Below are positions 536 to 62,849 of a DNA stretch of 64,000 bases, in pieces. Position numbers and translations under genes: made by a program. Position 1 is the first letter of the stretch; each line of letters opens with the position of its first letter. Source of the DNA: an uncultured bacterium (GTDB lineage Bacteria; Methylomirabilota; Methylomirabilia; Methylomirabilales; 2-02-FULL-66-22); NCBI GenBank assembly GCA_964576535.1, contig CAZNWB010000001.1, forward strand, positions 66,082 to 130,081, in the 5' to 3' direction. Below the pieces are notes generated by a model. That model saw only the letters and a program-made list of their open reading frames with translations. It was not told the origin of the DNA and made no database searches.

Positions 536-1813
536 ATGCGAGTCCTGGTGGTCGGGAGCGGGGGTCGAGAGCACGCCCTGATCTGGAAGCTAAAGCAGAG
601 CCCGCGCATCAAGCAGGTGTTTGGCGCGCCCGGCAATGCCGGCATCGCGGAGCTGGCCGAGTGCGTCGAAGTCGGCGCCTCCGAGGTGCGCCGGCTGGCC
701 GACTTTGCCGTAAGTCGCAGGATCGACCTCACGGTGGTCGGGCCCGAGGTGCCGCTGACCCTGGGAATCGTGGACGAGTTCGAGGTCCGCGGCCTGCGGG
801 TCTTCGGGGCCAACCAGAAGGCCGCCGAGCTTGAGGGGAGCAAGGTCTTCGCCAAGCGACTGATGAAGAAATACAAAATCCCTACCGGCTTCTTCCAAAC
901 CTTCTACCGGGCCGAGGACGCCAAGCGCTACATCCAGGACGTGGGGGCACCGATCGTGGTGAAGGCCGACGGGTTGGCCGCAGGCAAGGGCGCCATCGTG
1001 TGCCAGACGGTGAAGGAGGCCCTGGACTCCGTCCGGATGATCATGGAGGATCGCGTCTTCGGCGACGCCGGCGAGAAGGTCGTGGTCGAGGAGTTCCTGA
1101 CCGGCGAGGAGGCGTCCTTCCTGGCGTTCACGGATGGGGAGACGGTCCTCCCCATGGCCTCCTCCCAGGACCACAAGGCCGTCTTCGATGATGACAAGGG
1201 GTCCAATACCGGGGGCATGGGCGCCTACTCGCCGGCGCCCGTCGTCACCGAGGATGTCCACCACAAGATCATGAACCAGGTCATGATCCCCACCGTGAAG
1301 GCGATGGCCGCCGAGGGTCGGCCGTACCGTGGTGTCCTGTACGCGGGTCTCATGATCAAAGGCGGGGAGCCCAGGGCGCTGGAGTTCAACGCCCGATTCG
1401 GCGACCCCGAGGCCCAGCCACTGCTCATGCGGATGGACAGCGACCTCCTCCCGATCCTGGATGCCGTGATCGACCGGCGGCTGCACGAGGTGGAGATCGC
1501 ATGGCACCCCGAGCCGGCGGTCTGCGTGGTCATGGCCTCCGGCGGGTATCCGGGCGCGTACGAGAAGGGCAAGGTGATCAGCGGACTGCGCGCCGCGTCC
1601 CGCCTGAAGGACGTGGTGGTGTTTCACGCCGGGACGGCCCTGGCCGGGGGAAAGGTGGTGACCCATGGGGGCCGCGTCCTCGGCGTCACCGCCCTGGGGA
1701 AGGACATCCCTGACGCCATCGCCCGCGCCTACCGTGCCGTGGAGAAGATCCGCTGGGACGGGGCGCACTACCGCACCGACATCGGGAAGAAGGCCCTGAG
1801 CCGACCAACCTGA
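536..1813 (+). CDS. purD: Phosphoribosylamine--glycine ligase
   Basis: Internal ATG at 536 gives [15 protein letters not shown].., the ATP-grasp PurD signature, over the full length. The upstream part of the 422 ORF overlaps the purH end. Confidence 0.95.
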
Positions 1814-1895
1814 ATGCGGAATTCGGAATGCCGAATGCGGAATGGGAAAGTCGATCCGTCATTCCGCATCCCGCACTCCGCATTCCGAATTGCAT
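1813..1895. repeat. Heptamer-word hairpin: AATGCGG/AATTCGG/AATGCCG x5, loop, CATTCCG/CATCCCG/CACTCCG x5
   Basis: Read directly. The left arm 1813-1847 and right arm 1860-1895 are imperfect reverse complements, each a tandem 7-nt array. It fills the purD-purE gap. Confidence 0.8.
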
Positions 1896-1904
1896 GGGGG
1901 CGCT

Positions 1905-2438
1905 ATGGCTCGCAAACGAACCGGATCGTCCGGCGCGCGGTCGCCGGTGGTCGCTCTCCTGATGGGCAGCGACTCGGACCTGCCCACCATGCAGGAGGCG
2001 GCGAAGATCCTCGAGGAGTTCGGCGTCGCCTTCGAGATGCGCATCTGCTCCGCGCACCGGACGCCGGAGAGGCTCGTCCGCTACGCGCGCGAGGCCGAGG
2101 GGCGCGGACTGCGGGTCCTCATCGCCGGGGCCGGCGGGGCGGCCCATCTTGCGGGGGTCCTGGCCGCCCACGTGACCCTGCCGGTCATCGGCGTGCCGAT
2201 GGATTCGGGCCCGCTCAACGGACTGGACGCCCTGCTTTCCACGGTGCAGATGCCGAGTGGGGTGCCGGTCGCCACCGTGGCCATCGGGCGCGCCGGCGCC
2301 CGCAATGCCGCACTGCTCGCCGTCCAGATCCTGGCACTTTCCGATGTCCGGCTCAAGGCGAAGCTCGCCGACCACCGCGCCCGGATGGCGGCCGAGGTCG
2401 CCGCCAAGGATCGCCAGGTCCAGCCGGAGCCCGCCTGA
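1905..2438 (+). CDS. purE: N5-carboxyaminoimidazole ribonucleotide mutase
   Basis: ATG at 1905 gives [43 protein letters not shown], the PurE motifs. The earlier start at 1842 lies inside the repeat. Confidence 0.93.
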
Positions 2439-2450
2439 TGACCCGTCCTC

Positions 2451-2492
2451 AATTTCGAATTCCGAATTTCGAATTTTCAAACCCGAAATGGG
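2451..2492. repeat. Tandem heptamer array AATTTCG AATTCCG AATTTCG AATTTTC AAACCCG AAATGGG
   Basis: Six consecutive 7-nt units read directly between the purE stop and the GTG start at 2502. It is related in word to the 1813 and 31062 elements. Confidence 0.6.
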
Positions 2493-2501
2493 TTTTGTGA
2501 C

Positions 2502-4031
2502 GTGAGGTCGTATCGCCGCGCGACACTGCTCTGGTTGCTCGCCCTGACTGCCTTCCACCTCTGGTTTATCGCCAGCGGCCGCTGGCCCCTCTCCGGGGAC
2601 GAGGCCCACTACTGGGAGTGGTCCCGCCACCTGGACTGGAGCTACTACAGCAAGGGCCCCATGGTGGCCTACCTGATCGCGGCCAGCACGCGTCTCGGGG
2701 GCCACACGGAGTTCTGGGTCCGGCTGCCCGCCGTCCTGCTGGGAGTCGGCGTGGCGGTGGTCGCCTTCTTCCTGGCCCGCCGGATCTTCCAGAGCGATCG
2801 CGCCGGATTCCTCAGCGTCGTCTTCCTGAGCCTGATGCCCCTGTACCTTGCCGGCTCCTTCCTGATGACCATCGATCCGCCCTTCGTATTCTTCTGGGGG
2901 TTGGCCAGCCTCCTGCTCTGCCGCATCCCCCGCCGCCGGGGCGAGGCGGCGTGGTACGGCGCCGGCATTGTCTTTGGGCTCGGGTTGCTGAGCAAGTACA
3001 CGATGTTCATGCTCCCGGTCTGCGTGGCGATGTGGTTGCTGGTCTCTCCGAAGCTTCGCCCATGGCTCCGCCGGCGCGAGCCGTACGAGGCCGCCTTCCT
3101 CGGGCTGCTCGTCTTCAGCCCCGTCATCGTCTGGAACGTCCGGCATGGGTGGCTGTCGGGTCGCCACGTCTTGGTCCAGGCGGGCGCTGGGGGGGGCCGC
3201 TCGCTCGGGGCGTCGCTCCTCGGCGGCCCGGAGTTTCTCGCCTCGCAGCTCGGCGTGGTCTCGCCCTTCCTGTTCGTCCTGATGGGTCTGGCCGTGCTCT
3301 GGGCCTGGCGGGAGGGCATCCGTCAGGGGCGCGAGGACCTCTTGCTCCTGGCGTGCCTCTCGGCTCCCGTGTACATCTTTTTCCAGGTCTGGAGCTTCGC
3401 GACGAAGGTGCAGGCCAACTGGGCGGCTCACGCCTACTTCACCGCGGCCGTGGCGGCCGCCGGATGGAGCGAGACCTGGCCGGTGTGGGGGCCGCGCCGC
3501 CAGGGGACCAGGCGCTTGTACGGCCTGCTGCTTGCCTCTATAATCCTGCCCGTCGTGTCCCTTCCGTTGGCGTTCTTCCCGGAGGTCCTGGAGGTCTTCG
3601 GGGCCCGGGTCCCTGCGGCCGTAGACCTGGTGAGCAAGCGATTGCGCGGGTGGCCCGAGCTGGGGCGGGAAGTGGGAGAGGTGCTGCGTGGCTCGCCGAC
3701 TCCCCCGTTCCTGGTGAGCGACCGCTACCAGATCGCCAGCGAGCTTGCCTTCTACGTGGAGGGGCATCCGCGGGTGTTCAACGCCAACCTGGACCGCCGC
3801 ATGAACCAGTACGACCTGTGGGGAGGATGGGAGGCGCTGAAGGGGCGGGACGGCCTGTTCGTCACCTTCGGGGCCGGGGATCCGCCCGGGGAACTCCGGG
3901 ACGCTTTCCGCCGGGTGGAGCGGGTGAAGGTGGTGCCCATCGTGTACCGCGGCCAACGGCTCCGGGATTTCTCCATCTACTGGGGACGGGACTTCCGGGG
4001 CTTCCCCGCCCACCCCTTCACCGGATACTGA
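2502..4031 (+). CDS. Polytopic glycosyltransferase, GT39/GT83 (ArnT/PMT-like) family
   Basis: 509 aa with a GTG start. N-terminus has ..SGDEAHYWEWSRHLDWSYYSKGPMVAYL.. and many TM segments, typical of ArnT-like lipid-linked sugar transferases. Confidence 0.8.
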   Translation: MRSYRRATLLWLLALTAFHLWFIASGRWPLSGDEAHYWEWSRHLDWSYYSKGPMVAYLIAASTRLGGHTEFWVRLPAVLLGVGVAVVAFFLARRIFQSDRAGFLSVVFLSLMPLYLAGSFLMTIDPPFVFFWGLASLLLCRIPRRRGEAAWYGAGIVFGLGLLSKYTMFMLPVCVAMWLLVSPKLRPWLRRREPYEAAFLGLLVFSPVIVWNVRHGWLSGRHVLVQAGAGGGRSLGASLLGGPEFLASQLGVVSPFLFVLMGLAVLWAWREGIRQGREDLLLLACLSAPVYIFFQVWSFATKVQANWAAHAYFTAAVAAAGWSETWPVWGPRRQGTRRLYGLLLASIILPVVSLPLAFFPEVLEVFGARVPAAVDLVSKRLRGWPELGREVGEVLRGSPTPPFLVSDRYQIASELAFYVEGHPRVFNANLDRRMNQYDLWGGWEALKGRDGLFVTFGAGDPPGELRDAFRRVERVKVVPIVYRGQRLRDFSIYWGRDFRGFPAHPFTGY

Positions 4032-4117
4032 ACGCTGTTCGGTGGTTCGACCGTTCGGCGGTTCGGTTGTTCATCTGGCCTTCGGGAACTACCGAACCCC
4101 CGAACCACCGAACAGCC
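4031..4117. repeat. GTTCGG-family octamer hairpin
   Basis: GCTGTTCGGTGGTTCG at 4034 pairs with CGAACCACCGAACAGC at 4101. The arms are GTTCGNNN tandem units. It starts at the stop codon of the GT39 gene. Confidence 0.8.
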
Positions 4118-4157
4118 GGACGCCTGGGGTCGCAGCGATCCGTGTAGCATTGCTGAC

Positions 4158-5150: not shown

Positions 5151-6130
5151 TGGGCCAGCAGGGGCTCCCCCGGCGGACGGGCCGCCTCCTGGTCCTGGGA
5201 AAGCTGCTGATCAGCAGCCTCCTCCTGGCGTTCCTGTTCCTGCGGGTGGATCGGACGGTCTTCGTCCGCACCCTCCAGGCCCTGCCCCTCAGGGTCTTCC
5301 TCGGGTGCGTGGGCCTGTACTTCCTGGGCACCGTCATCAGCACCGTCCGCTGGCAACGCCTGCTGCTAGCCGAGGGGATCCGGCTTCCCCTCTGGCGCCT
5401 GTCGCTCGTCTATTTCGAGGGGGCCTTCTTCAACCTGTTCCTGCCGACGCTGATCGGGGGGGACATCGTCCGCGGCTATTCCATCTACAAGATCACCCGA
5501 GGGCACGACGCGTCCATCGCCTCGATCCTGGTGGATCGCCTCTCCGGCTTTGCGGCCCTGATCATCATCGCACTGGTGGCGCTGGGGCTGGCCTATGGGC
5601 AGGTCCGCGACCCCCAGGTTGCCGCCATGATCCTGGGCGTGGCCGCCGCCTTCGTGGGGATGATTGCCGTCCTGCTGAACGAACGGGTGAAGGCATGGGC
5701 CTTGGGCCTCTTGCGGGGAATGGGCTTGGCGCGGTTCCAGGTCAAACTGCAGGGCATGGTGGAGGCGCTTCACCGCTACCGGGGACACCACCGGGCGCTG
5801 GGGCAGGCCCTCGTCCTCTCCGCGCTGCTGCAGGGTCTGATCATCGTGACCTACTACCTGATCGGTGCCGGACTGAATCTGGGGGTCCCGCTGGCGTACT
5901 TCTTCCTGTACGTTCCCCTGATCACGTTCGTGGCGATGCTTCCGGTCTCGGTCGCCGGCCTCGGCGTGCGTGAGGGGGGCGCGGTCTACTTCTTCGCCAA
6001 GGTGGGCGTGGACGCGGCGGCAGCCCTCGGCATGTCGCTGGCGTGGTTCTCCCTGTCGCTGATCGTGAGCAGCCTGGGTGGCCTCGCCTTTCTCGTGAAC
6101 ACCCACGCCGCCATGCGGGTTCGGGACTGA
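5147..6130 (+). CDS. Flippase-like / lysylphosphatidylglycerol-synthase-TM-region family membrane protein
   Basis: Polytopic, with ..RWQRLL..LFLPTLIGGDIVRGY.. typical of the UPF0104 family. The start overlaps the preceding stop (GTGATG). Confidence 0.75.
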   Translation: MMGQQGLPRRTGRLLVLGKLLISSLLLAFLFLRVDRTVFVRTLQALPLRVFLGCVGLYFLGTVISTVRWQRLLLAEGIRLPLWRLSLVYFEGAFFNLFLPTLIGGDIVRGYSIYKITRGHDASIASILVDRLSGFAALIIIALVALGLAYGQVRDPQVAAMILGVAAAFVGMIAVLLNERVKAWALGLLRGMGLARFQVKLQGMVEALHRYRGHHRALGQALVLSALLQGLIIVTYYLIGAGLNLGVPLAYFFLYVPLITFVAMLPVSVAGLGVREGGAVYFFAKVGVDAAAALGMSLAWFSLSLIVSSLGGLAFLVNTHAAMRVRD

Positions 6131-7593: not shown

Positions 7594-7672
7594 GCGATCG
7601 GGCCTTCGGATTGAAGACGGAATCGCTCCCGAGACTTCAATCCGCGATCGGCAATCACCAATCATCAATCTC
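7594..7672. repeat. Imperfect hairpin (CGGATTGAAG/CTTCAATCCG) followed by CAATCAC CAATCAT CAATCTC heptamers
   Basis: Read directly, just upstream of the usp start. Confidence 0.5.
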
Positions 7673-8979: not shown

Positions 8980-9033
8980 CCCCGATCCGAGATCTCGAAC
9001 CGCCAAGGCGCCAAGGGCGGCAAGGTGAACCCA

Positions 9034-14860: not shown

Positions 14861-14996
14861 AAAGGCGTTCGAGTGTTCGGTCGTTCGGGCGTTCGGCTGT
14901 TCCTGGAACCACCGAACTACCGGGACCCACGGCACCGCGGTCCAGCGCCTCGCGGACCGCGACGGCGTGGGTGCCCCGAACCACCGAACGCTTTTC
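14861..14996. repeat. GTTCGG-family element with nested GC-rich core hairpin (variant apex)
   Basis: Termini are AAAGGCGTTCG.. and ..CGAACGCTTTTC, with GTTCGNNN units and a core at 14920-14981. It fills the lpxL-like/waaF gap. Confidence 0.85.
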
Positions 14997-18395: not shown

Positions 18396-18506
18396 AAAAG
18401 CGTTCGGTAGTTCGGTGGTTCGGTTGTTCCACGGTTCCGCGGCTCGCCAGTTCGACCGTTTCGGTACAACCGAACTACCGAACGCTCGAACTCCCAAACG
18501 TTTTTC
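18396..18506. repeat. GTTCGG-family octamer hairpin
   Basis: AGCGTTCGGTAGTTCGG at 18399 pairs perfectly with CCGAACTACCGAACGCT at 18470. The right end overlaps the last codons of the DUF374 gene. Confidence 0.8.
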
Positions 18507-21414: not shown

Positions 21415-21425
21415 GGCGTCTCATA

Positions 21426-44520: not shown

Positions 44521-44551
44521 AAAAAAAGGGAAGAACCCGAAGGCCCTTCCC
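44521..44551 (-). terminator. Intrinsic terminator of rplM-rpsI
   Basis: Minus strand: GGGAAGGGCC-TTCG-GGTTCTTCCC followed by T7. Confidence 0.8.
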
Positions 44552-44572
44552 CGTCCTTCCCCGGCGAAACGG

Positions 44573-45584: not shown

Positions 45585-45790
45585 CCGATCTTAGCCCGTA
45601 TTATTCGCGAAGACTGTATCTTCGCTCATAACCGCCCCGCGTTTCGCGGGGTTTCGACGCGGTGCTCACGCACCTTGCTCAAGACTAACCCGGGCTAACC
45701 CTGAGCGAAGGCCCACAGGGCCGTAGTCGAAGCCCGGAGGGCGGATTATTCACCTTTTCGTGAATAATTCGGGTTAGGCTTTGCAGATCC
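45585..45790. other. Lower-GC structured intergenic element with nested inverted repeats (unknown nature)
   Basis: TTAGCCCG/CGGGCTAA, GCGAAG-ACTGTAT-CTTCGC, CCCCGCG-TTT-CGCGGGG, GGCCC-ACA-GGGCC and ATTATTCAC-CTTTTC-GTGAATAAT. The ends share the motif CCCG(T/A)ATTATTC(G/A)CGAA in inverted orientation. Confidence 0.4.
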
Positions 45791-46676: not shown

Positions 46677-46702
46677 CCTGATTGCCGGGTTGCCTGATTG
46701 CC
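46677..46702. repeat. Short ATTGCC-word array (CCTGATTG CCGGGTTG CCTGATTG CC)
   Basis: Uses the same word as the 34781-34891 element. No partner arm is seen nearby. Confidence 0.4.
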
Positions 46703-46705
46703 TTC

Positions 46706-47470: not shown

Positions 47471-47503
47471 CAGGACCCCACTACCTAGCCATTCTCGGGA
47501 GAA

Positions 47504-47647
47504 CTGTAGCTGTCAGCCGTCAGTTGTCAGCCCTAGCGTCCCACATGAATTCTGCGTTCGTCACTCCTTGGGGAATGAACCTAGCTGGCGGTTCCTGTGT
47601 CTCGGACCCACAAGCTGACGGCTGACCGCTGATGGCTGAGCGCTCAG
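47504..47647. repeat. GCTGA-family inverted heptamer arrays with a 75-nt spacer
   Basis: GTAGCTG TCAGCCG TCAGTTG TCAGCCC at 47506 versus AAGCTGA CGGCTGA CCGCTGA TGGCTGA GCGCTCA at 47611. The right end overlaps the birA stop. Confidence 0.75.
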
Positions 47648-48453: not shown

Positions 48454-48455
48454 TT

Positions 48456-48531
48456 GTAGCGCTCAGCCATCAGCATTCAGCCATCAGCGCCGATCAGCGA
48501 GCTGACCGCTGATTGCTGATCGCTGCCCCTC

Positions 48532-53613: not shown

Positions 53614-53762
53614 GCGACCTCTCCGGATCCGCCGAACCGCACTCAGTGCTTGATTTCATAATTTCGTGCAGGGTTGGCCGGAACCAACCCCGTACGAAAC
53701 CCCCTTGGCAAAGGGCGATCCGTATCGGGGGAACCCTGATACGGATCTATGAAGTCAAGGAC

Positions 53763-54272
53763 TCAGGAGCCGCCCGCATAGAACTGGACGACCTCGTCGA
53801 GTCCCGTCAACCCCTCCTCGTTGACCAGCAGGATGATCCGGTCCTGGCGGCTGTAGAGCCCGCGGAAACACGCGGGGTCCAGGAGCGTGGCCAGCGCCGG
53901 CATCGGCGCGATCCGGGCCGGATCCACCTCGACCATCTCCAGGACCTCATCCACCAAAAGCCCGAGCGCTCGTCCCTGCGCCTGCGTCAACAGGACGCGT
54001 GCCGTCGCCGGAATTTCAGCCGGGGAACCCTCGAACAGCGCTCGCATGCGGATGACAGGAAGCCTGCGCCCCCGATACGTGAGCGCGACGCAGGCCTGGT
54101 AGGCAGGGGCTGGCAAGGCCGTGAGCCCGTCGGGCAGCAGAACCTGTCGCAGCCCTCGGAGCCCCACTCCGTAGGTTTCGTCGCCGACGCGAAACAGCAG
54201 AAACTTCTCCCGGGCCGCGGGGCCCTCCGCTTTGCCACGGGTCCGTTGCTTCGTCGTCGTGAGGGGTCCCAA
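53763..54272 (-). CDS. CheW-like coupling protein (second copy)
   Basis: ..FLLFRVGDETYGV..ALTYRGRRLPVIRMRALF..GLLVDEVLEMVEV. TTG start after AGGGGAG. Confidence 0.8.
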   Translation of the reverse strand: MGPLTTTKQRTRGKAEGPAAREKFLLFRVGDETYGVGLRGLRQVLLPDGLTALPAPAYQACVALTYRGRRLPVIRMRALFEGSPAEIPATARVLLTQAQGRALGLLVDEVLEMVEVDPARIAPMPALATLLDPACFRGLYSRQDRIILLVNEEGLTGLDEVVQFYAGGS

Positions 54273-54283
54273 TCACTCCCCTT

Positions 54284-54321
54284 TCGGCCCGCGAGTCTCC
54301 TCTCGGCCTGCGAGTCTCCTC
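54284..54321. repeat. Two tandem 19-nt units TCGGCCYGCGAGTCTCCTC
   Basis: 54284-54302 and 54303-54321 differ at one position. They lie in the predicted 5' leader of the cheW operon. Confidence 0.7.
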
Positions 54322-54338
54322 CACGCAGGAGTGCGGTC

Positions 54339-54367
54339 ACAATACTCACCACCCCCAGGATTGTCAA
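54339..54367 (-). promoter_or_regulatory. Promoter TTGACA-N17-TATTGT for the cheW-cheW-RR operon
   Basis: Minus strand: TGTCAA at 54362-54367 and ACAATA at 54339-54344. Confidence 0.55.
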
Positions 54368-54629
54368 GCCCTTTCCCCCTCGCCTGGCAGCCATCGAGTT
54401 CCCTAACCCCGCGCCACAAATGGCGGGATAGATACGCCCCTCCCCTGGCGTTCTCCCTTGACCCATTCCCCATGCCGGTTGTATACATGGTCGCCGTCCT
54501 CGAATCGAGTTTGCTTCTGGTGCGAAGGGATCGCATCGGAGACGATTCTTGTCCGATCCGTTCGGCGCGGGGGCGGCACGTGGAACGCCCTCATTCTACC
54601 GCCGGCCAGCCTTACGAGGAGCCCTTCGA

Positions 54630-55796
54630 ATGAACAAGATCGGCATCGGCATCATCGGATCGCGGTTTGCCGCCGATCTTCACGCCCACGCCCTGAGCAA
54701 GGTCCGGGGGAGCAAGTGCGAGATCGTCGCGGTCTGTTCCCGGACGAAGGAGAGCGCAGAGGCCTTCGCCCGGAAATTCAACGTCCCCCACGTGTACGCC
54801 GACCACCGGGCGGTGCTGGACCGCAAGGACATCCACCTGGTGGACCTGGTGCTGACGACCAACCTGCACCACAGCATGGCCATTGATGCGGCCAATGCGG
54901 GGAAGCACATCATCTGCGAGAAGCCGCTCACCGGCTGCTTCGTCGAGGCCAGCGCCATGACCCGGCAGGCCATGTTCGACGCCGCCATGAAGAATGCCGA
55001 CGCCGTCCTGGAGGCCTGCCGGCAGAACCGGGTGACCCTCGGGTACGCCGAGAACTTCGTGTATGCGCCCCCGGTGGCGAAGCTGCGCCGCCTCATGGAT
55101 GCCAGCGGGGGAAGCCTTCTCGATCTCCGGGCCGAGGAGAGTCACTCCGGCTCCCACGCGGCCTACTCGCGGCGGTGGGTGACCTCGGGCGGGGGGTCCA
55201 TGCTTCGGATGGGGTCCCACCCCATAGGCGCGGTGATCCACCTGAAGCACTACGAGGGACAGCGGAAGTTCGGGAAGCCGATCCGGGTCAAGTCGGTCCT
55301 GGCCGACGTCGCCCAGTTGACCAAGACCGAGGCCTTCCGCAAGGAACCCCGGAAATGGCTGGTCAGCGAATGGGACGATGTGGAGGACTGGTCGGCCGCC
55401 ATCTTGACGTTCGAGGACGGGACCAAGGCCACCGTCCTGTCCACCGACGTCAGTCTGGGGGGCGTGAAGAACCTGGTGACCGCCTATCTCTCCAACAGCG
55501 TGGTCCAGGTCAATATCAATCCCAACACCAGCCTGGTGGTCTACGCCCCGGACGGGAAGATCTGGGGGGACGAGTACATCACGGAGAAGGTGGAGACCAA
55601 GGGCGGGTGGCAGTTCCCCAGCCCCGACGAGGACTGGATGCGGGGTTACCCGCAGGAAATGGAGGACTTCGTGGACGCCGTCCGGGAGGGCCGCGAGCCC
55701 CTCTCGGGCGCCCTGCTCGCCCACGAGACTGTCGAGGTCATCTACGCCGCCTACGTCTCGGCGCAGGAAGGCCGGCGGGTAGACCTCAAACGCTAG
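54630..55796 (+). CDS. Gfo/Idh/MocA-family oxidoreductase
   Basis: ATG at 54630 follows GAGGAG. MNKIGIGIIGSRFAADLHAHAL.. and ..IICEKPL. Confidence 0.88.
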   Translation: MNKIGIGIIGSRFAADLHAHALSKVRGSKCEIVAVCSRTKESAEAFARKFNVPHVYADHRAVLDRKDIHLVDLVLTTNLHHSMAIDAANAGKHIICEKPLTGCFVEASAMTRQAMFDAAMKNADAVLEACRQNRVTLGYAENFVYAPPVAKLRRLMDASGGSLLDLRAEESHSGSHAAYSRRWVTSGGGSMLRMGSHPIGAVIHLKHYEGQRKFGKPIRVKSVLADVAQLTKTEAFRKEPRKWLVSEWDDVEDWSAAILTFEDGTKATVLSTDVSLGGVKNLVTAYLSNSVVQVNINPNTSLVVYAPDGKIWGDEYITEKVETKGGWQFPSPDEDWMRGYPQEMEDFVDAVREGREPLSGALLAHETVEVIYAAYVSAQEGRRVDLKR

Positions 55797-55838
55797 CGGA
55801 CCAGAAGTCCCGGAGAGCGTGCCTCTACGACTTTGCCG

Positions 55839-55868
55839 TTGACAGATCAAGAGCTCCCCAGGTATCTA
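55839..55868 (+). promoter_or_regulatory. Candidate promoter TTGACA-N18-TATCTA upstream of dctP
   Basis: Perfect -35 and a weak -10, about 75 nt upstream of the ATG at 55943. Confidence 0.35.
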
Positions 55869-55942
55869 GGCGTACAAGGAGTCACTGGCTTTCAGAGCAT
55901 CCGCTGCCACCGAATCCTACGCAGACCCAAGGAGGCTTCGTC

Positions 55943-56944
55943 ATGAACAGGAAGAAGGGGCTCTGGCTCTTGGCGCTTATCGCCGTGTGCGTCCTGGCGA
56001 TCGTTCCCGGAAGGGGTGAGGCCCAGGACAAGAAAATCGTGGCCAAGGTGGCGGACATCCTCTCCCCGGACCACCCCCACTCCCGGACGTGGCAGTATTT
56101 CGCCGACAAGGTGAAGGAGCGGACCAAGGACCGGATGGAGGTCCAGGTCTTCCACAGCGCCCAACTCGGTCAAACGAAGGATCTGTACCTGGGGGTGCAA
56201 GCCGGCAGCATCGAAATGGCCAAGATGCCTGCCTCCTTCGCCGGCGAGTGGATCCAGGAGGTGAAGGTCTTCGACCTCCCCTACCTCTTCAACAACCGGG
56301 AGGAGCTGTGGCGGGTCCTGCGAGGCCCCGTGGGCAAGAAGTTCATCAACGAGGTCTACCCGAAGTACAACGTCGTCGGGATCATGTGGGTGGATGACGG
56401 CGGGCGCAGCGTCTATGCCAACAAGCCGGTGCGGAAACCCGAGGACCTGAAGGGGATGAAGATCCGCGTCCAGCCCAGCGACATCCAGATCCAGGCCATG
56501 AATGAGATGGGTGGGATTGGCACGCCCCTGGCCTTTGGCGAGGTCTACCTGGCTCTCCAGCAGAAAGTCCTGGATGGGGCGGAGAACTCCCCTGTCCTCT
56601 TCTTCACCTCCAAGCATTGGGAGGTCTCCAAGGTCTACTCACTAACGGAGCAGTTCTGGTCGGTCAGCACGCTGCTGGCCAACAAGAAGTGGTGGGAGGG
56701 CCTGCCGAAGGACATCCAGGCCGCGGTGCTGGCGGCCGGTCAGGATGCGGAGAAGTACTTCCTCGACATCTATGTCGCAGACGAGAACAAGGCCATCGGC
56801 TGGCTGAAGGAAAGGGGCGTCCAGGTGGTGACCGATGTGGACAAGGCCGCCTTCGAGAAGCGGATCCAGCCCGTCTATGACGCCTTCACCAAGAAGTACG
56901 GGAAAGACTTCCTGGACCAGGTTCAGGCCGCGAAGAAGAAGTAA
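55943..56944 (+). CDS. dctP: TRAP transporter substrate-binding protein (DctP family)
   Basis: ATG at 55943 follows GGAGG. Signal peptide, then ..HPHSRTWQYFADKVKERT.. and ..MKIRVQPS.. typical of DctP. Confidence 0.9.
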   Translation: MNRKKGLWLLALIAVCVLAIVPGRGEAQDKKIVAKVADILSPDHPHSRTWQYFADKVKERTKDRMEVQVFHSAQLGQTKDLYLGVQAGSIEMAKMPASFAGEWIQEVKVFDLPYLFNNREELWRVLRGPVGKKFINEVYPKYNVVGIMWVDDGGRSVYANKPVRKPEDLKGMKIRVQPSDIQIQAMNEMGGIGTPLAFGEVYLALQQKVLDGAENSPVLFFTSKHWEVSKVYSLTEQFWSVSTLLANKKWWEGLPKDIQAAVLAAGQDAEKYFLDIYVADENKAIGWLKERGVQVVTDVDKAAFEKRIQPVYDAFTKKYGKDFLDQVQAAKKK

Positions 56945-56969
56945 GGGAAACGCGGGAACGATCAGGCAC

Positions 56970-57012
56970 GGGGGGCGATGCCGCACGTTGCACATCGCTC
57001 CCCAATTTTTTT
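56970..57012 (+). terminator. Intrinsic terminator/attenuator between dctP and dctQ
   Basis: GGGGGGCGATG-12 nt loop-CATCGCTCCCC (one G-U pair) followed by AATTTTTTT. Confidence 0.65.
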
Positions 57013-57033
57013 CCGGGGCGTGGAGAGGAACCC

Positions 57034-57510
57034 GTGAAGAGACTGCTCGGGGAGAGCATCGAGTGGGTGAGCGCGGGCTTGGTTGTCGCCCTGACCGTGG
57101 TGGTGTTCATTCAGGTCTTCAACCGCTTCGTCCTCAAGACGCCCCTGGCCTGGTCGGAAGATTTGGCCATGCTCCTGTTCCAGTGGGTGGCCTTCCTGGG
57201 CGCGGCCCTCGGCGTCAAGCGCATGCGCCATTTCGGCATTGAGATGGTCGTGAAGGCACTGCCCGAAAAGGTTCGCCACGGCGTTGAGCTGCTCGTGCCA
57301 CTCATTATGGCCATCGTCGGCCTGACGATGCTCATCCAGGGCTGGACCCTCCTCACCCTGAACTGGAATAGGATCTATTCCACCATGAACCTTTCCTATA
57401 CCTGGGCCTTCCTGCCCATCCCGCTGAGTGGTGCCCTGATCCTCCTGTACCTTCTCCAGCACGAGGTCCGGCGCTGGGGGGGCAAGGGAGGAGCTCTGCC
57501 TCGGCCATGA
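57034..57510 (+). CDS. dctQ: TRAP transporter small permease (DctQ family)
   Basis: Four TM segments and ..FNRFVLKTPLAWSEDLAMLLFQW.. The stop overlaps the dctM start. Confidence 0.85.
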   Translation: MKRLLGESIEWVSAGLVVALTVVVFIQVFNRFVLKTPLAWSEDLAMLLFQWVAFLGAALGVKRMRHFGIEMVVKALPEKVRHGVELLVPLIMAIVGLTMLIQGWTLLTLNWNRIYSTMNLSYTWAFLPIPLSGALILLYLLQHEVRRWGGKGGALPRP

Positions 57511-58796
57511 CGGCGATCGCGATCCTCCTCGGAGGGTTCGCCCTCTTGCTCGCGATGAACGTGCCGGTGGCCTTTGCCATGGCACTTGCCTGCATCGCCA
57601 CCCTCCTCTGGCAGGGAACGATCCCGGTCTTGACCGTCACGCTGAAGCTCTACTCGGGGATCGACACGTTCCCCTTCCTGGCCATCCCCCTCTTCATCCT
57701 GGCCGGGGGCCTGATGGAGCACGGGGGGATTTCCCAGCGGCTGGTGCGGTTGGCCAGGAATCTCGTGGGGCACATCAAGGGGGGACTGGGCTTTGTGGTG
57801 GTGGTGTCCGAGATCTTTTTCTCTGGGATCTCCGGGTCCTCGATCGCCGATGCGTCCGCCATCGGGTCGCTTTTGCTGCCCTCCATGATCCGGGCGGGCT
57901 ACGCTGCCAACCGGGCCGCCGCCATCGTCGCCGCGGCCACCGGGATGGGGATGATGATCCCGCCCTGCCTGAACATGGTGGTCCTGGGGGCGGTGTCCAA
58001 TATCTCCATCGCCGGGCTGTTCATGGGCGGATTCCTCCCCGGATTTCTCATGGCCCTCACCCTGATGGTCATCATCTACATTCAGTCGTCCAGGGGGACC
58101 TTACCCGGCGCGGAAGGAAGCAGACCAGCCTTCCGGGAAGTCCTCATCTCGCTCTGGGACAGCGTCATTCCGCTCATGATGCCGGTGATCATCTTCGGCG
58201 GCATCTTCGCGGGAATCTTCACTGCGACCGAGGCCGCCGCGGTGGCCACCGTGTACGCGTTCATCGTGTCGGTCTTTTTCTACAAGGAGATCCAAGGGAA
58301 GGAGTTGGTGAAAATCTTCGTGGATACCGCGGTCATGACGGGGGTCGTATGCTTGCTGGTCGGAGCGGCGACGAGCTTCTCCTGGATCCTGGCCACCTAT
58401 CAGGTGCCGCGGATGATCGGGGACTTCATCGGATCGCTGGAGGGAGGACGAGCCGTCTTCTTGCTCATGACGATTGCGGTCTTCCTGGTATTCGGAATGA
58501 TCTTGGATGGCCTGCCTGCCATTCTCATCTTCTTTCCCATCCTGTATCCGATCGCCCTCTCCGTCGGGCTCCACCCACTGCACTTCGGGGTCTTGGTGAT
58601 CGCGGTCGTTGGCATCTCGATCGTGGCTCCGCCCATCGGTCTGTGTCTCGTAATCATCTGCAGCCTGGCCAAGATCAAGCTGACGGACACCATTCGGCCA
58701 CTCATTCCATACACCCTCATCCTGATTGTAGATCTGATCGTCATCGCCTTCTGGCCGTGGCTAGTGCTGATTCTTCCCACCGTGTTCAAGCTGTAA
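57507..58796 (+). CDS. dctM: TRAP transporter large permease (DctM family)
   Basis: 429-aa polytopic protein with ..FPFLAIPLFILAG.. and ..GISGSSIADASAIGS. Confidence 0.93.
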   Translation: MTAIAILLGGFALLLAMNVPVAFAMALACIATLLWQGTIPVLTVTLKLYSGIDTFPFLAIPLFILAGGLMEHGGISQRLVRLARNLVGHIKGGLGFVVVVSEIFFSGISGSSIADASAIGSLLLPSMIRAGYAANRAAAIVAAATGMGMMIPPCLNMVVLGAVSNISIAGLFMGGFLPGFLMALTLMVIIYIQSSRGTLPGAEGSRPAFREVLISLWDSVIPLMMPVIIFGGIFAGIFTATEAAAVATVYAFIVSVFFYKEIQGKELVKIFVDTAVMTGVVCLLVGAATSFSWILATYQVPRMIGDFIGSLEGGRAVFLLMTIAVFLVFGMILDGLPAILIFFPILYPIALSVGLHPLHFGVLVIAVVGISIVAPPIGLCLVIICSLAKIKLTDTIRPLIPYTLILIVDLIVIAFWPWLVLILPTVFKL

Positions 58797-58882
58797 GCCA
58801 TGCTGTCTCATTCGCAGGCATCCGGCGCGAGTGCAACAGAGTCGCCAGGCCGGCCGATTGACCTCAACGGAAAGGACCGGGT

Positions 58883-59872
58883 ATGCCCAAGCTGAAGATC
58901 GGCTTCATCCCTATTGAAGGCGGGCACTACTACAAGGAGGCCCTGGAGGAGGTGATCCGGGGGGAGGAGCTGGGCTTCGACTCCATCTGGATGGAGGAGC
59001 ACCATTCTGTCGTGAACCACTACTGGCCCTCCCCCCTCACGGTGCTCGCCGGGTTCGCCACGCGTACCTCGAAGGTGATCCTGGGGACCGACATCCTGGT
59101 CGCGCCCTTTTACCATCCCGTGCGACTAGCGGAGGACGCGGCGCTTCTGGACATCATGTCGGGGGGGCGCTTCGTCCTGGGGGTCGCCATCGGCTACAAG
59201 CCGGACGAGTTCGCCCTCTACGGCGCCGAGCTGGAGAGGCGCGGCGCGCGCTTCGAGGAGCAACTGGCCGTCGTCAAGGGCCTCTGGACCCAGGAGGCGT
59301 TCTCATTCCAGGGGAAGTACTACAAGGTGGAGGGCCGGCTGGAGCCCAAGCCCATCACGAGACCCCACCCGCCCGTGTGGGTCGGGGGGTGGGGCGATCT
59401 CACCCTCAAACGCGCCGCGACGCTGGCCGACAACTGGATCCCCGGGCCCACGGCGGATCTCGCGCGCCTGCTGGCGGGCAAGCAGCAGTTCCTGAAGAAC
59501 CGCGCCGCTGCGGGCCGCACCGCGCCCGTCGCCGAGTGGCCCGTTACCCGCGACGTCATCATTGCGGACACCGACAAAGAGGCCCGGGACCTGGCGGAGC
59601 GGCACATCATGCTCGCCTACCGGAAGGAGTACGCTGGAGGCTGGAAGCACCCCTTCATCGACGCCTCCATCGCCACGGACCTCGATGCCCTGAAGAAGGA
59701 CCGCTTCCTGATCGGGGGGCCCGACGAGGTCATCCGGGCCCTCAGACCGGTGGTGGAGCAGTACGGCATGACCCACCTGATCTGCCGGCTGTTCTTCCCG
59801 GGCATGCCCCACCGGCATATCCTGCGGGAGCTGGAGCTTCTGGCCAAGGAGATCATGCCGGCGTTCCGCTGA
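58883..59872 (+). CDS. LLM-class (luciferase-like) flavin/F420-dependent oxidoreductase
   Basis: ..LGFDSIWMEEHH.., ..FVLGVAIGYKPDEF.. and ..PPVWVGGWG. Confidence 0.88.
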   Translation: MPKLKIGFIPIEGGHYYKEALEEVIRGEELGFDSIWMEEHHSVVNHYWPSPLTVLAGFATRTSKVILGTDILVAPFYHPVRLAEDAALLDIMSGGRFVLGVAIGYKPDEFALYGAELERRGARFEEQLAVVKGLWTQEAFSFQGKYYKVEGRLEPKPITRPHPPVWVGGWGDLTLKRAATLADNWIPGPTADLARLLAGKQQFLKNRAAAGRTAPVAEWPVTRDVIIADTDKEARDLAERHIMLAYRKEYAGGWKHPFIDASIATDLDALKKDRFLIGGPDEVIRALRPVVEQYGMTHLICRLFFPGMPHRHILRELELLAKEIMPAFR

Positions 59873-59914
59873 GACATCCGCTTCCCGGGCGCGTCCTGAC
59901 ACCCGGGATAGTCG

Positions 59915-59943
59915 TTGACATTTCCCGTCGCCCCCGGTAGGGT
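59915..59943 (+). promoter_or_regulatory. Candidate promoter TTGACA-N17-TAGGGT upstream of ilvE
   Basis: Perfect -35 with a 3/6 -10, about 45 nt upstream of the ATG at 59986. Confidence 0.4.
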
Positions 59944-59985
59944 GCTGCCGAACGCACGTTCGGGAGGCCACCAAAGGGGGAGGTC

Positions 59986-60897
59986 ATGAATCTCGCCTAC
60001 TTCAACAAACAGTTCGTGCCGCTCTCGGAGGCCAAGATCAGCATCCGGACGAATGCCCTGCACTATGGAAGCGGGGTATTCGAGGGGATCCGGGCCTACT
60101 GGAATCCGAAGGAGCAGCAACTGTACGTCTTCAAGCTCCCGGAACACTACGAGCGCATGGTGAACAACTGCAAGGTGATGAAGCTCAAGCTGGATCACGA
60201 CATGAAAGAGCTGTGCGCCCTCACTGTGGATCTCCTCCGTCGGAACCAGCCGCGGGAGGATACCTACATCCGCCCCATCGCCTACATCAGCTCCGAGGGG
60301 CTGGGTCCAAAGCTCATCGGCTACGAGACCGGGTTCGCCGTCTATACCATCCCGCTCGGGGATTACATCGACACCTCGGTCGGGATCAAGGTAGGATTCT
60401 CCTCGTGGCGCCGGATCAGCGACAACAGCATCCCGGCCCGCTGTAAGGTGACCGGGGGATACGTGAACTCGGCGCTGGCCCGGACCGAGGCCATAGAGCA
60501 GGGCTACGACGAGGCCATCTTCCTCACCCAAGACGGCTTCATCTCCGAGGGATCGGCCGAGAACATCTTCCTTGCCCGCAACGGCAGCCTCATCACGCCT
60601 GACCTGTCCCAGGACATCCTGGAGGGGATCACCCGCGACGTGCTCCTCACGCTGTGCCGGGAGGAGCTGGGCTTGACGGTGGTCGAGCGTCAGGTGGGCC
60701 GCACGGAGCTGTACGTGGCGGACGAGGTCTTCCTCTGCGGGACCGGGGCCCAGGTCTCCCCGGTGATCGAGGTGGATCGCCGCCCCGTGGGCAGCGGGAA
60801 GATCGGCCCCATCACGGCCCGCATCCAGCAGCTCTACTTCCAGGTCGTCAAGGGCGACCATCCCAAGTACCGCCACTGGTGCACGCCGGTGTATTGA
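59986..60897 (+). CDS. ilvE: Branched-chain amino acid aminotransferase (fold type IV)
   Basis: ..LHYGSGVFEGIRAY.., ..CKVTGGYVNS.. and ..EGSAENIFL..GITRD. Confidence 0.93.
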   Translation: MNLAYFNKQFVPLSEAKISIRTNALHYGSGVFEGIRAYWNPKEQQLYVFKLPEHYERMVNNCKVMKLKLDHDMKELCALTVDLLRRNQPREDTYIRPIAYISSEGLGPKLIGYETGFAVYTIPLGDYIDTSVGIKVGFSSWRRISDNSIPARCKVTGGYVNSALARTEAIEQGYDEAIFLTQDGFISEGSAENIFLARNGSLITPDLSQDILEGITRDVLLTLCREELGLTVVERQVGRTELYVADEVFLCGTGAQVSPVIEVDRRPVGSGKIGPITARIQQLYFQVVKGDHPKYRHWCTPVY

Positions 60898-60983
60898 CCT
60901 CCCCTCATTTCCGCCTCTCCCCGGGTACCCCGCCTGCGGCGGGGTGCGGGAAAGGAAATAGGTGAGGGGGCTCTGGAAACCAT

Positions 60984-61020
60984 GCGGCCCGGAGGATGTC
61001 TCCGGGCCGCGTTCTTGTTT
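60984..61020 (+). terminator. Intrinsic terminator of ilvE
   Basis: GCGGCCCGGAG-GATGT-CTCCGGGCCGC followed by GTTCTTGTTT. Confidence 0.75.
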
Positions 61021-61053
61021 GGCAGCTCTCGCTGGGAAATTCCGGCGCGGACC

Positions 61054-61326
61054 TTACCAAATCTCGGACTGCACGTCCCCCCGGCCCTTCACCAGGATGT
61101 CCACGACCGCCAGGTTGAAATAGTCCGTCTGGAGCGTCACCGCCGGATCCACGTTCTTCTCGTAGTACCTCCGCCCCTCCTCAAGCTCCCGCTCCATCAC
61201 TTGGAACAGATTGTCGTGCTTGATGCCCTCGGTGATCTTTTCTTGGTTGTACAGGACGATGTCCCCCACGATCAGCCGCGCCAGCCGCCTGGCGCGCTCG
61301 TGCGGGTCCTTGCGTTCGACGGCCAT
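61054..61326 (-). CDS. Small hypothetical protein (90 aa)
   Basis: Coding-like (..ARRLARLIVGDIVLYNQEKI..), 24 nt downstream of purF on the same strand. No family recognised. Confidence 0.6.
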   Translation of the reverse strand: MAVERKDPHERARRLARLIVGDIVLYNQEKITEGIKHDNLFQVMERELEEGRRYYEKNVDPAVTLQTDYFNLAVVDILVKGRGDVQSEIW

Positions 61327-61350
61327 AGGTGAGCGCCCACCCTCCGTGAT

Positions 61351-62745
61351 TCAGGCTCCGAAGAGGCGCAACTGGCTCACATCCTCCACCGGGAACGCCA
61401 CCGGGTACTGCAGGCTGAAGCAGGCATGGCAGAACCCGTCATCCTTTCCGACGGCTTTGAGCAGCCCCTGCATGCTCAGATATCCCAGACTGTCGGCCCG
61501 GATGTACCGGCGGATCTCCTCCACCGAGTGGCTGGAGGCGATGAGTTCCTTCCGGGTCGGCGTGTCGATCCCGTAGAAGCAGGGGGAGACGGTGGGCGGC
61601 GCACTGATGCGCATGTGGACCTCGCGGGCGCCGGCCGAGCGGATCATGGTCACGATCTTCCGGCTGGTGGTCCCGCGGATGATGGAGTCGTCCACCACCA
61701 CGACCCGCTTCCCTTCCAGGATTTCCCGCACCGGGTTCAGCTTGATCTTCACCCCGAAGTGGCGGATAGTCTGCTTGGGTTCGATGAAGGTCCGACCCAC
61801 GTAGTGGTTGCGGATCAGGCCGTGGTCGAAGGACAGGCCCGACTCCTGCGCGTAGCCGAGGGCCGCCGGCAGCCCGGAGTCCGGCACCGGGATCACCAAG
61901 TCCGCGTCGGCCGGCGCCTCCCGGGCGAGTTGCCGGCCCAGCGCCTTGCGCGCCACGGCGACGTTCTGCCCGTACAGCAGGCTGTCGGGGCGGGAGAAGT
62001 AGACGTACTCGAAGATGCACTGGGCCGGACGCGCTGGCGGCAACGGCCGGTAGGATTTCATCCCCTGGGGGGTGATGTGGACGAACTCGCCCGGCTCCAC
62101 GTCCCGCACGAACGTCGCATCGATCAGGTCGAAGGCGCAGGTCTCGGATGCCAGGACCCAGGCATCCCCCAGCCGCCCTAGGGACAGGGGCCGGAACCCG
62201 TGCGGGTCCCGGATCCCCAGGAGCTCCGTCTCATTCATGATCACCAGGGAATAGGCCCCCGAAACCCGGCCCAGCGCCTCGGCCGTCGCCTCCACGAGGT
62301 TATCGCTCGCGGAGCGGGCGATCAGGTGGACGATGACCTCGGTGTCGGTGGTGGAACTGAAGATCGAGCCCTCTCGCTCCAGCTCGGCCTTCAACAGGTG
62401 GGCGTTGACGAGGTTGCCGTTGTGGGCCAGGGCCACGCTGCCGCGGCGGTAGTTGGCCAGGATCGGCTGGGCGTTCTTGAGCTGGGAGCTGCCGGTCGTC
62501 GAATAGCGCACGTGGCCAATGGCCAGAGAGCCCTTGAGGCGGCGGAGGCGGATCTCGCCGAAGACATCCGCCACGAGGCCCATCCCCCGCTCGAGGTGCA
62601 GCGTGTGGCCGTCCGAGGCGACGATCCCGGCGCTCTCCTGTCCCCGGTGCTGGAGGGCGTACAGCCCCAGGTAGGTCAGATTGCCCGCTTCGGGACGGCC
62701 CAGGATTCCGAAGATACCGCAGGCCTCGCGGAATTTATCCAACAT
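61351..62745 (-). CDS. purF: Amidophosphoribosyltransferase
   Basis: ATG at 62745 follows [22 protein letters not shown] (propeptide + catalytic Cys), a PRTase motif ..[13 protein letters not shown].. and C-terminal Cys ligands. Confidence 0.94.
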
Positions 62746-62763
62746 CGCATTTCCCCTCGCGCT

Positions 62764-62849
62764 CAACGCAAAACTGACAACCGACAACTGAACACCGGCC
62801 AGTTGCCCGGTTGTCGGTTGTCAGTTGTCGGTTTTCAATTGTCATTGGC
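62764..62849. repeat. GTTGTC-family hairpin
   Basis: CGCAAAACTGACAACCGACAACTGAACACCGG-loop-CCGGTTGTCGGTTGTCAGTTGTCGGTTTTC..CATTGGC, between the aminotransferase stop and the purF start. Confidence 0.8.

Follow-up and report, generated by a model that had tools for sequence, protein, structure and literature searches.

The 64,000-nucleotide stretch of contig CAZNWB010000001.1 analysed here (hereafter the window, to which all unlabelled positions refer) has a G+C content of 67% and carries housekeeping genes throughout, among them purD, purE, kdtA, lpxI, bamA, a clpB/clpC-like gene, lysS, lnt, cdsA, frr, pyrH, tsf, rpsB, argJ, argC, rpsI, rplM, coaX, birA, valS, cheW, dctPQM and purF. No tRNA genes are present in the window, and none of its 64 kb matches an Rfam family at gathering score, sub-threshold matches to miRNA precursors being spurious. 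Many spacers between these genes hold short tandem arrays of 7- or 8-nt words, most of them facing an array of the reverse-complement word, and these inverted-array elements are the subject of the present analysis. The host is treated as Methylomirabilota-like on the basis of gene order and of 69–70% nucleotide identity of the clpB-like gene with Methylomirabilia and Rokuibacteriota contigs, i.e., it is probably an uncultured Methylomirabilota-like (Rokubacteria-like) bacterium; the closest ArgJ proteins, 75–96% identical, are metagenome-derived.

Arrays of period 7 and 8 in the spacers

Arrays were located with Tandem Repeats Finder, an inverted-repeat finder and folding of every spacer. They consist of three to six units of 7 or 8 nt, and half of them are octameric. 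At a self-match score of at least 11, seven segments at lag 7 and seven at lag 8 are found in the whole window, all of them intergenic, with none at lags 4–6, 9 and 10 and with 0.03–0.2 in whole-window shuffles. At a score of at least 9, the 7.1 kb of intergenic DNA yields 13 segments at lag 7 and 7 at lag 8 (0.12 and 0.00 after dinucleotide shuffling), compared with 2 and 0 in coding DNA (56.9 kb; 0.6 and 0.5 after shuffling), which corresponds to a density of about 2.8 per kb against 0.035 per kb, or about 80-fold. No other period between 4 and 12 is enriched, codon multiples within genes excepted. An earlier note on this DNA had listed 22 array loci and had staked its proposal on such arrays being less frequent in coding and shuffled sequence; the arrays are real, lie where they had been placed, and are rarer outside the spacers by the margin just given.

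Seventeen of the 22 loci are inverted-array hairpins (Table 1) with folding energies of −20 to −85 kcal/mol and z-scores of −2.6 to about −7, and 12 of them fold better than each of 200 shuffles. Three others hold genuine arrays and lack the inverted partner, and two are weak, one being a plain hairpin followed by three CAATCAN units and the other two units only. The elements are intergenic and adjoin stop codons, as the earlier note had observed, and occupy 19 of the 31 co-directional spacers of at least 25 nt and neither of the two divergent spacers (our own count). Its further suggestion that some elements supply last codons or enclose the stop is borne out at 18.4 kb, where the right arm covers the predicted stop of the open reading frame (ORF) 18475–19185; at 12045, 31140 and 47644 the elements only adjoin the stop, within 1–8 nt.

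An origin of the arrays as assembly artefacts is ruled out, since an independently assembled contig (L001; Logan SRR12685303, 9.1 kb) is 99.96% identical to window positions 53717–62836, and since orthologous contigs from other metagenomes hold elements at the same spacers. L001, which is also the only public contig with an exact protein from the window, starts in a hairpin-rich spacer and ends within the right arm of the element at 62.8 kb, and short-read assemblies of the host seem to break at the elements.

Families, end motifs and polarity

The elements measure 50–168 bp and combine inverted arms with end motifs. Each arm is a short array, typically of four octamers or of four to six heptamers, and each unit is built around a family-specific core of 5–6 bases, with 1–3 free bases between cores. 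One construction rule with several word families, as the earlier note had put it, describes the elements well: at least the families F1–F7 occur inside 64 kb. Families were defined by explicit word patterns, de novo single-linkage clustering of the words having collapsed to one cluster.

A 19-nt probe taken from the nested F1 hairpin (see below) had 118 exact matches in metagenome contigs (L101–L218; G+C 0.62–0.75, about 0.8 Mb). These loci mostly have true composite F1 architecture, a minority being chance coding matches. The lineage sample used throughout amounts to 872 kb of related metagenome DNA and covers genomes in part. Among 83 distinct F1 (GTTCGG) copies the ends follow the consensus AAAAGC-GTTCGG...CCGAAC-GCTTTT, with a median length of 109 nt and the same polarity in all 83, and the three composite F1 copies of the window align at 78% over about 150 nt. 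Copies of F3 (GTTGTC) likewise have common caps, CAATGCAAAAC...GTTTTGCATTG. Across the 872 kb, a right array lies within 200 nt of 90 of the 112 left arrays of F1, and the order is always word array followed by reverse complement (F1 90:0, F3 11:0, F4 8:0, F2 4:0; 118:0 over eight families, orthologous loci being included in these counts). The earlier picture of local, free-standing arrays is thus replaced by one of dispersed homologous families with conserved end motifs and fixed polarity; the fixed polarity and the non-repeat caps point either to common descent of the copies or to polarity-dependent recognition.

We read the elements, with about an even chance of being right, as small (about 50–150 bp) non-coding palindromic repeats of the foldback, REPIN or miniature inverted-repeat transposable element (MITE) type, dispersed in at least six to eight families. 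Inverted terminal arms and small size are shared with MITEs. The hallmarks of repetitive extragenic palindromes (REPs) are missing from F1–F7, in that no GTAG motif is present at their ends and the arms are direct arrays without internal palindrome. A plasmid collection contained no match to the F1 composite consensus, and a scan of viral contigs with the F1 word pattern returned 19 loci, mostly coding or direct arrays without an inverted partner, with L090 as the sole true element.

Word and pairing in the F1 family

The contributions of word and pairing were tested on F1, the largest family, because this is the only one with enough copies. Of 53 left arms, 35 have four units, 13 have three and 4 have five. 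Adjacent units share their variable bases in 7 of 152 comparisons, which is below the chance expectation of 11.8 ± 2.2. At 328 facing variable positions canonical pairs amount to 39%, against 43 ± 2.4% in a composition-matched null (core-only register); permuting the variable dinucleotides does not destabilize the fold, and no covariation is seen at the polymorphic core position 6 (G/A versus C/T). The arms of F1 are neither copies of each other nor recent products of slippage. The complementarity of the arms comes from the shared word only, and what is conserved in F1 is the word and its orientation, not base pairing.

Hairpins nested inside the words

In composite F1 elements, three of which are in the window, a hairpin of 50–56 nt (GGGACCCACGG...GTGGGTGCCCC) interrupts a CCGAAC word, separating its CC from its GAAC. 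All true composite copies seen have this hairpin in the right arm, in a single orientation with respect to the arrays. By our own reading of the sequences, it has conserved mismatches and a 2-nt bulge, and across copies the apex covaries (TGG/CCA in 17 distinct apexes, TCC/GGA in 9, TGC/GCA in 3, and also TAG/CTA and CGG/CCG); no Rfam family matched this hairpin. The counterpart of 34381–34430 in L206 has yet another hairpin nested in its apex.

A second insert, a 17-nt mini-hairpin of the form TCCGCC-N3-4-GGCGGA, is also found within GTTCGG/CCGAAC words, at a position different from that of the 50-nt insert. When L102 (~1245–1263) is compared with L180 (5489–5540), with flanks 96–100% identical, the 17-nt and 50-nt inserts alternate in the same word; the mini-hairpin occurs furthermore in L130, L134, L136, L148, L172 and L176, and not in the window. 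Insertion of a hairpin at one position of a word of only six bases offers a compact example of sequence-specific insertion.

Turnover at orthologous spacers

Orthologous spacers were compared in 12 related contigs that overlap the window at 74–98% nucleotide identity (Table 1, last column). This comparison, which the earlier note had put forward as a check, revealed gain, loss, resizing and replacement of one family by another, with ordinary spacers conserved: those at 27.6, 38.5 and 44.5 kb are 87–98% identical to their counterparts. Contigs with about 92–99.9% identical flanks differ by a 101-nt F3 element, by a 50-nt hairpin or by 50 nt of heptamers. Presence in one relative and absence from another, as expected of MITEs, was observed for an F3 element (L122/L163), for the F4 element E13 (window/L137) and for the F7 element at 51.4 kb. 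A GGCTCTC heptamer array differs by 50 nt between L172 (~6060–6085) and L202 (~5573–5598), contigs that are 99.5–99.9% identical, and some arrays therefore vary at strain level. Copies persist for a while, gain or lose units, acquire nested hairpins, and are lost or exchanged for another family, and loss and replacement are far faster than change in the flanking genes or in ordinary spacers.

Table 1 Arrays, inverted-array elements and nested hairpins of the window, with the state of the orthologous spacer in related contigs (Listed, locus in the earlier list; z, folding z-score)
Position	Listed	Family	Structure	Setting	z	Relatives
1812–1891	1813	F2	GAATGCG ×5, 13-nt loop, CATTCCG ×4–5	Begins on purD stop (1811–1813), upstream of purE	−5.25	
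2451–2476	2451	F2-like	One-armed, AATTTCG ×3.7, one complementary unit after	purE/PMT_2 glycosyltransferase spacer		
4034–4121	4031	F1, simple	Left GTTCGGNN ×5, right NNCCGAAC ×4	3 nt past stop 4029–4031	−5.81	
7650–7672	7594	F5-like	Weak; three CAATCAN units after plain hairpin (~7602–7650)	Shortly before likely start codon (7691)		
9001–9025	Absent	F7	One-armed, CGCCAAGG ×3			
12012	12012		Weak; two units only			
14863–14996 (+)	14861	F1, composite	GTTCGRNN ×4, loop, CCGAAC ×2, nested hairpin, CCGAAC ×2, end GCTTTTC		−5.25	L129, L214: F1 without nested hairpin
14922–14977 (+)		Nested hairpin	56 nt, GGGACCCACGGCACCGCGG..GGCGTGGGTGCCCC	Within CCGAAC word		
18399–18491	18396	F1	7–8 left units, 3 right; no nested hairpin	Right arm over predicted DUF374 gene stop (18475)		F1 with nested hairpin
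20356–20467	20356	F6	Left GGTGRATN ×4, right NATYCACC ×4–6		−3.64	F6 retained in all five relatives sampled; sole family so retained
21425–21521	21426	F1, simple		Between lpxI and GFO/IDH/MocA oxidoreductase gene	−7.05	L214: left arm replaced by AATGTCG-type hairpin
24671–24706	24671	F4, small	One TTCAGC, then GCTGAAA, GCTGATG, ACTGACA		−2.56	Larger in L214
31062–31131	31062	F2b	Left AATGTCG ×5, right TTCGACA-type ×3–4	Ends 8 nt from stop 31140	−4.01	
32474–32600	32474	F3	End motif CAATGCAAAAC, ACAACNG ×3; two alternative right arms, CGGTTGT ×2.7 at 32529 and at 32577	Downstream of lysS		
34135–34260 (E13)	34135	F4	126 nt; TCAGCNN ×2–3, ~50-nt loop, NNGCTGA ×6.6	Interval between promoter match and lysS start		Absent from L137
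34321–34455 (+) (E14)	34321	F1, composite		Downstream of small ORF 34474–34716, upstream of promoter match	−5.90	
34381–34430 (+)		Nested hairpin	50 nt	In E14		
34781–34886	34781	F5	Left GGCAAYCN ×4, right NGRTTGCC ×4		−6.43	
36100–36165	36100		One-armed, pyrimidine-rich octamers of GCTCCTCC type (coding strand purine-rich)	lnt/next-gene spacer		L178: F1 hairpin
41862–42000 (−)	41862	F1, composite	Opposite orientation	Directly after argJ stop, upstream of conserved rpsB leader	−6.16	L178: F1 without nested hairpin
41889–41938 (−)		Nested hairpin	50 nt			
43249–43340	43249	F3		Between argC and argJ	−2.64	L178, L121: F1
46677–46703	46677	F5 right-arm type	One-armed, NGATTGCC ×3	40-nt convergent spacer		G-rich heptamers
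47504–47646	47504	F4	~75-nt loop	coaX/birA spacer; right arm ends on birA stop (47644)	−4.53	Other families or nothing (L217: 28-nt spacer)
48459–48525	48456	F4		birA/valS spacer	−5.37	Five relatives: F1 composite
51.4 kb		None	16-nt spacer			L121, L125: 204-nt inverted CGCCAAGG-family (F7) element
62764–62843	62764	F3		Downstream of purF	−6.24	

Some spacers also contain repeats of other kinds. A family with the ends GCCCGGATTATTCGCGAA...TTCGTGAATAATCCGGGC is represented in the window at ~45590–45780, in L145 and L193 at the 20.4-kb spacer and in L135 at the 47.5-kb spacer; it is inserted in only some relatives, as a 196-nt insertion in L145 compared with L164 (99.8–100% identical), and the L145 copy has an internal CAATGAC/GTCATTG heptamer hairpin. 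In the spacer orthologous to window positions 47471–47643, L178 and L125 differ from L121 by a MITE-like insertion of 157 nt with terminal inverted repeats CAGGCTGCTGAAAAAGG...CCTTTTTGAGCAGCCTG and a possible TAA duplication, adjoining an AACGTTG heptamer array. The clpB-like gene and bamA are separated by a 162-nt spacer (27640–27801) that shares 98% identity with L214 within a block (24.6–28.6 kb) of about 85% identity, which suggests a constrained leader or small RNA; this spacer has no match in Rfam even at E ≤ 1.

Position relative to transcription

Composite copies, 56 in number, lie in co-directional spacers in 48 cases, in convergent spacers in 7 and in a divergent spacer in 1. Folding is better on the sense strand for 9 elements and on the antisense strand for 8, i.e., there is no strand bias, and the split does not inform on selection at the RNA level. 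The orientation of composites relative to transcription (12:11 in a first count, 32:16 in a refined one) shows a mild preference that is inflated by orthologous copies and is not relied on here.

The earlier note had stated that most elements lack T-tracts. This agrees with the terminator rule of five T in eight, which no element of the window passes, and needs qualification for F1, whose consensus (n = 83) has an AAAAGC head and a GCTTTT tail; the other families are tail-less. A single canonical terminator-like site was found in 40 kb, at 44527–44552 (−), where an 11-bp stem is followed by TTTTTTT downstream of rpsI, and it is conserved in L178 and L121. A perfect sigma-70-type match, TTGACA-17-TATAAT (12/12), lies at 34302–34274 (−), with E14 on one side and E13 on the other, and both L206 and L137 have conserved it. 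This match places E14 at the end of the upstream unit and E13 (F4, 126 nt) in the probable leader of lysS.

Candidate mobilizing enzymes

Searches for a mobilizing enzyme were performed by tblastn with approximate Y1-transposase queries, for which only positive matches are informative. A gene for a RayT-type Y1 transposase of 343 aa was identified in L152 (6865–7896, −) and L126 (1106–2134). Its product scores 32.5 bits on Pfam Y1_Tnp (cut-off 23), has a weak match to the DnaA C-terminal helix-turn-helix (HTH) and is a member of a very large family. In both contigs the gene is flanked by a perfect 30-nt inverted repeat with GTAG (GGGGACGTAGCGCAGTTATGAAGGATATTT) and by short tandem G-rich words. 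The flanking inverted repeats of this gene and of its homologues in related contigs are of the GGGGACGTAGC type and differ from the words of the window: homologues in L224, L225 and L227 are flanked by inverted repeats in a similar way, and the one in L221 has a related motif downstream only, with no inverted repeat detected. Within 6.9 kb, L221 carries three RayT-like copies, one of which has GTCAGAG heptamer arrays on its upstream side, and two-copy tandem words accompany the RayT-like gene and the four homologues in all cases but one. A degenerate TnpA of the IS200/IS605 type, with an internal stop and a damaged HUH motif, is found in L175 (7552–7920, −), and L173 has a 351-nt deletion inside it.

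The window itself contains no RayT gene. None of 948 ORFs neighbouring the elements encodes a transposase, as is expected of non-autonomous elements. Array pairs 200–3500 nt apart in the 872 kb proved to be only separate elements at neighbouring spacers (2/3 cases checked), and multi-copy ORFs in the same DNA form ordinary paralogue families with no transposase among them.

Relation to known repeat systems

The closest match in architecture is provided by the foldback (FB) elements of Drosophila and other eukaryotes, long inverted repeats of short tandem units with unequal arms, many of which are non-coding. They differ in being eukaryotic and about a kilobase in length, with units of 10–31 bp, and no homology is implied. 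The 50-nt and 17-nt hairpins in CCGAAC words resemble the SDR elements of Nostoc punctiforme, which are reportedly palindromic inserts of ~20–30 nt nested in other repeats without target duplication; phylum and sequences differ. The F6 words GTGGAT/ATCCAC resemble part of what we take to be the core of the DnaA box. The STRR sequences are tandem heptamer arrays of heterocystous cyanobacteria. Membership in STRR was rejected, as half of the arrays are octamers, the words differ and the nearest relatives show synteny with Methylomirabilota loci. Polarity, number of families or architecture likewise spoke, by reasoning only, against attC sites, DNA uptake sequences, and CRISPR and retron repeats.

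As analogues, REP/BIME and STRR, both named in the earlier note, are reasonable. Like STRR and the TAACTGA repeats of Beggiatoaceae (MacGregor 2015, PMC4679880), the present arrays include intergenic tandem heptamers with several words, and their function is not known. Unlike them, the Beggiatoaceae repeats are mainly direct arrays, described without capped palindromic architecture: a Beggiatoa genome has 169 direct sets and one indirect repeat, with arrays upstream of start codons (PMC4679880). Heptanucleotides are reported to outnumber other long simple-repeat units in most of the prokaryotic genomes that were examined (Mrazek 2007, summarized in PMC4679880). With REP/BIME/REPIN (Bertels and Rainey 2011, PMC3116915) the elements have in common that they are short intergenic inverted pairs that form hairpins, occur in several families per genome and are non-autonomous, that copies are long-lived in position, and that RayT-type genes are present in the lineage. 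A REP, however, is a small palindrome of 20–40 nt with a GTAG-type motif (PMC3116915), whereas the arms in the window are direct word arrays, and REPIN spacers show compensatory changes, unlike the arms of F1.

The earlier note knew of no described system of this kind. The architecture is in fact already known, though uncharacterized, from Geobacter metallireducens (Aklujkar et al. 2009, PMC2700814), where paired sites on opposite strands, ~80–110 bp apart, fall into several classes, among them GTTGCTYN ×4 (24 pairs), TCTCCGTS[Y] ×3 (21) and MTYCTGA ×5 (8). Their function is not known; they were named putative global regulator binding sites, and binding of a protein of the IHF/HU type is the hypothesis of those authors. 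Common to both systems are three to five tandem units of 7–9 nt with an opposite-strand partner, several word classes, and an intergenic position, including within an operon (proBA in Geobacter). Class 1 has four octamers per arm, as F1 does, and some cores are similar (MTYCTGA and NNGCTGA; GTTGCTYN and NGRTTGCC). The window differs in phylum and in most of its words, and in the nested mini-hairpins and the comparative evidence for turnover that are added here. In Geobacter two insertion sequences, ISGme8 and ISGme9, keep a fixed spacing to class 1 sites, whereas no insertion sequence adjoining an element was seen here.

A control set of 80 lysS neighbourhoods from other phyla (1.16 Mb; LysRS at most 60% identical, among the matches listed) contains 41 strong period-7 arrays, compared with at most 16 at any other period. 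At a lower threshold it contains 93 period-7/8 arrays, 35 of them with an inverted partner. These arrays lie in Desulfuromonadales, Vicinamibacterales, other Acidobacteriota, Terriglobia, Thermodesulfovibrionia, Geobacter, Syntrophomonas and Desulfobacterales, and the architecture thus occurs in at least eight other lineages; some control arrays share words and polarity with the window in the case of GAATGCG, TCAG.../...CTGA and ATGCAAA.

Discussion

The explanation that we favour, with about an even chance of being correct, is that the elements are non-autonomous and were spread by an enzyme that recognizes the words, effects on transcripts being a consequence. Since word and orientation are conserved and pairing is not, the words may be the recognition units of a trans-acting protein. 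This protein would probably be a transposase or recombinase specific to the element, with its gene elsewhere in the genome, and would copy the element. After insertion, the elements would be transcribed within operons and would fold into long stems with regular 2-nt mismatches, and F1, with its A4/T4 caps, would probably act as a bidirectional attenuator or as a protector of mRNA 3′ ends.

Several results weigh against spread by a word-recognizing enzyme. No enzyme tied to any word family of the window was found in the lineage contigs. The REP-type transposases to which the earlier note had pointed do exist in related contigs, with a DnaA-like HTH tail, and a link to the families of the window was not made: neither the RayT-like gene, nor the degenerate IS200-like gene, nor any of the four RayT homologues is flanked by the window's words. 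No autonomous copy, with arms flanking a gene, was found in the 872 kb. Pairs of filled and empty sites show no clear target-site duplication, their flanks being diverged. Nearly all relatives have an element in the same spacers, sometimes one of a different family, and a host requirement for a hairpin at these places could explain this equally well. The covariation tests presume one pairing register and are weakened by the ability of tandem arms to pair in several, and many apexes are tight (GTTC-N3-5-GAAC), so that hairpin formation itself seems to matter.

The main rival, which we regard as unlikely, is that operons need stem-loops between cistrons and at 3′ ends, as terminators, attenuators or exonuclease barriers, and that host selection has shaped RNA hairpins in which the words are incidental. 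The location of the elements at gene 3′ ends and between co-directional genes, their avoidance of divergent promoter regions, the strength of the stems and the occupation of the spacers in almost all relatives despite family differences are in agreement with such a role, as are the resemblance of the capped F1 to a bidirectional terminator and the position of E14, with the end of one unit on one side and a perfect promoter match on the other; moreover, with one canonical T-rich terminator in 40 kb, something else must end transcripts. Against it, sense and antisense folding show no bias (9 versus 8), and compensatory pairing is absent from the variable and polymorphic positions of F1. A role as hairpin only predicts both polarities, in contrast to the 118:0 observed, E13 is probably part of the lysS leader, in which termination would be harmful, and the core words are conserved over hundreds of copies beyond what pairing alone requires.

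Conservation of word and orientation without pairing would also suit arms that serve as rows of double-stranded DNA sites for a host protein (of the IHF/HU type or another nucleoid protein), with inverted pairs organizing the DNA. The predominance of four units in F1 arms, as in class 1 of G. metallireducens, fits such a function. So does F6, which was retained in all relatives sampled and whose words recall the presumed DnaA-box part. We nevertheless consider it improbable: at least eight unrelated words would need as many proteins, a spacing of 7–8 bp puts successive sites on different faces of the helix, promoters are avoided, and gain, loss and family swaps among close relatives are unlike regulatory sites. 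Least probable is an origin in situ, in which slippage builds the words and template switching or selection makes the opposite arm, separately in each spacer, which is close to the combination of slippage and hairpin selection that the earlier note had offered. The reported abundance of heptamers among prokaryotic simple repeats and the variation in unit number between orthologues, and between contigs with 99.5–99.9% identical flanks, speak for it. As a sole cause it is largely refuted by F1, in which adjacent units are less alike than chance, unit number varies narrowly around four, pairing is not compensatory and the arms show no complementarity beyond the shared core; furthermore, across many loci and contigs the non-repeat end motifs are retained and the polarity does not vary, and whole elements appear or vanish between near relatives.

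A wider proposal, to which we attach clearly less than even weight and which must be called speculative, is that inverted arrays of about four to five 7–8-nt words form a coherent and hitherto unrecognized class of bacterial foldback mobile elements across phyla. The words would then bind a dedicated recombinase, for example a RayT-type Y1 transposase fused to a DnaA-like HTH, and the word arrays would serve as landing pads for the 50-nt and 17-nt hairpins at a fixed position in the word. If true, one mechanism would account for the 'global regulator sites' of Geobacter and perhaps for the heptamer arrays of cyanobacteria.

The elements explain assembly breaks at the spacers of such genomes and, if mobile, would make up a large and overlooked share of the intergenic DNA of abundant uncultured soil and groundwater bacteria. 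The comparative data provide the first evolutionary handle on the Geobacter pattern, which was recorded in 2009 and never explained, and the conserved word and polarity direct experiments to a word-reading protein rather than to RNA structure alone. As G. metallireducens is culturable and has the same architecture, the question is directly testable there.

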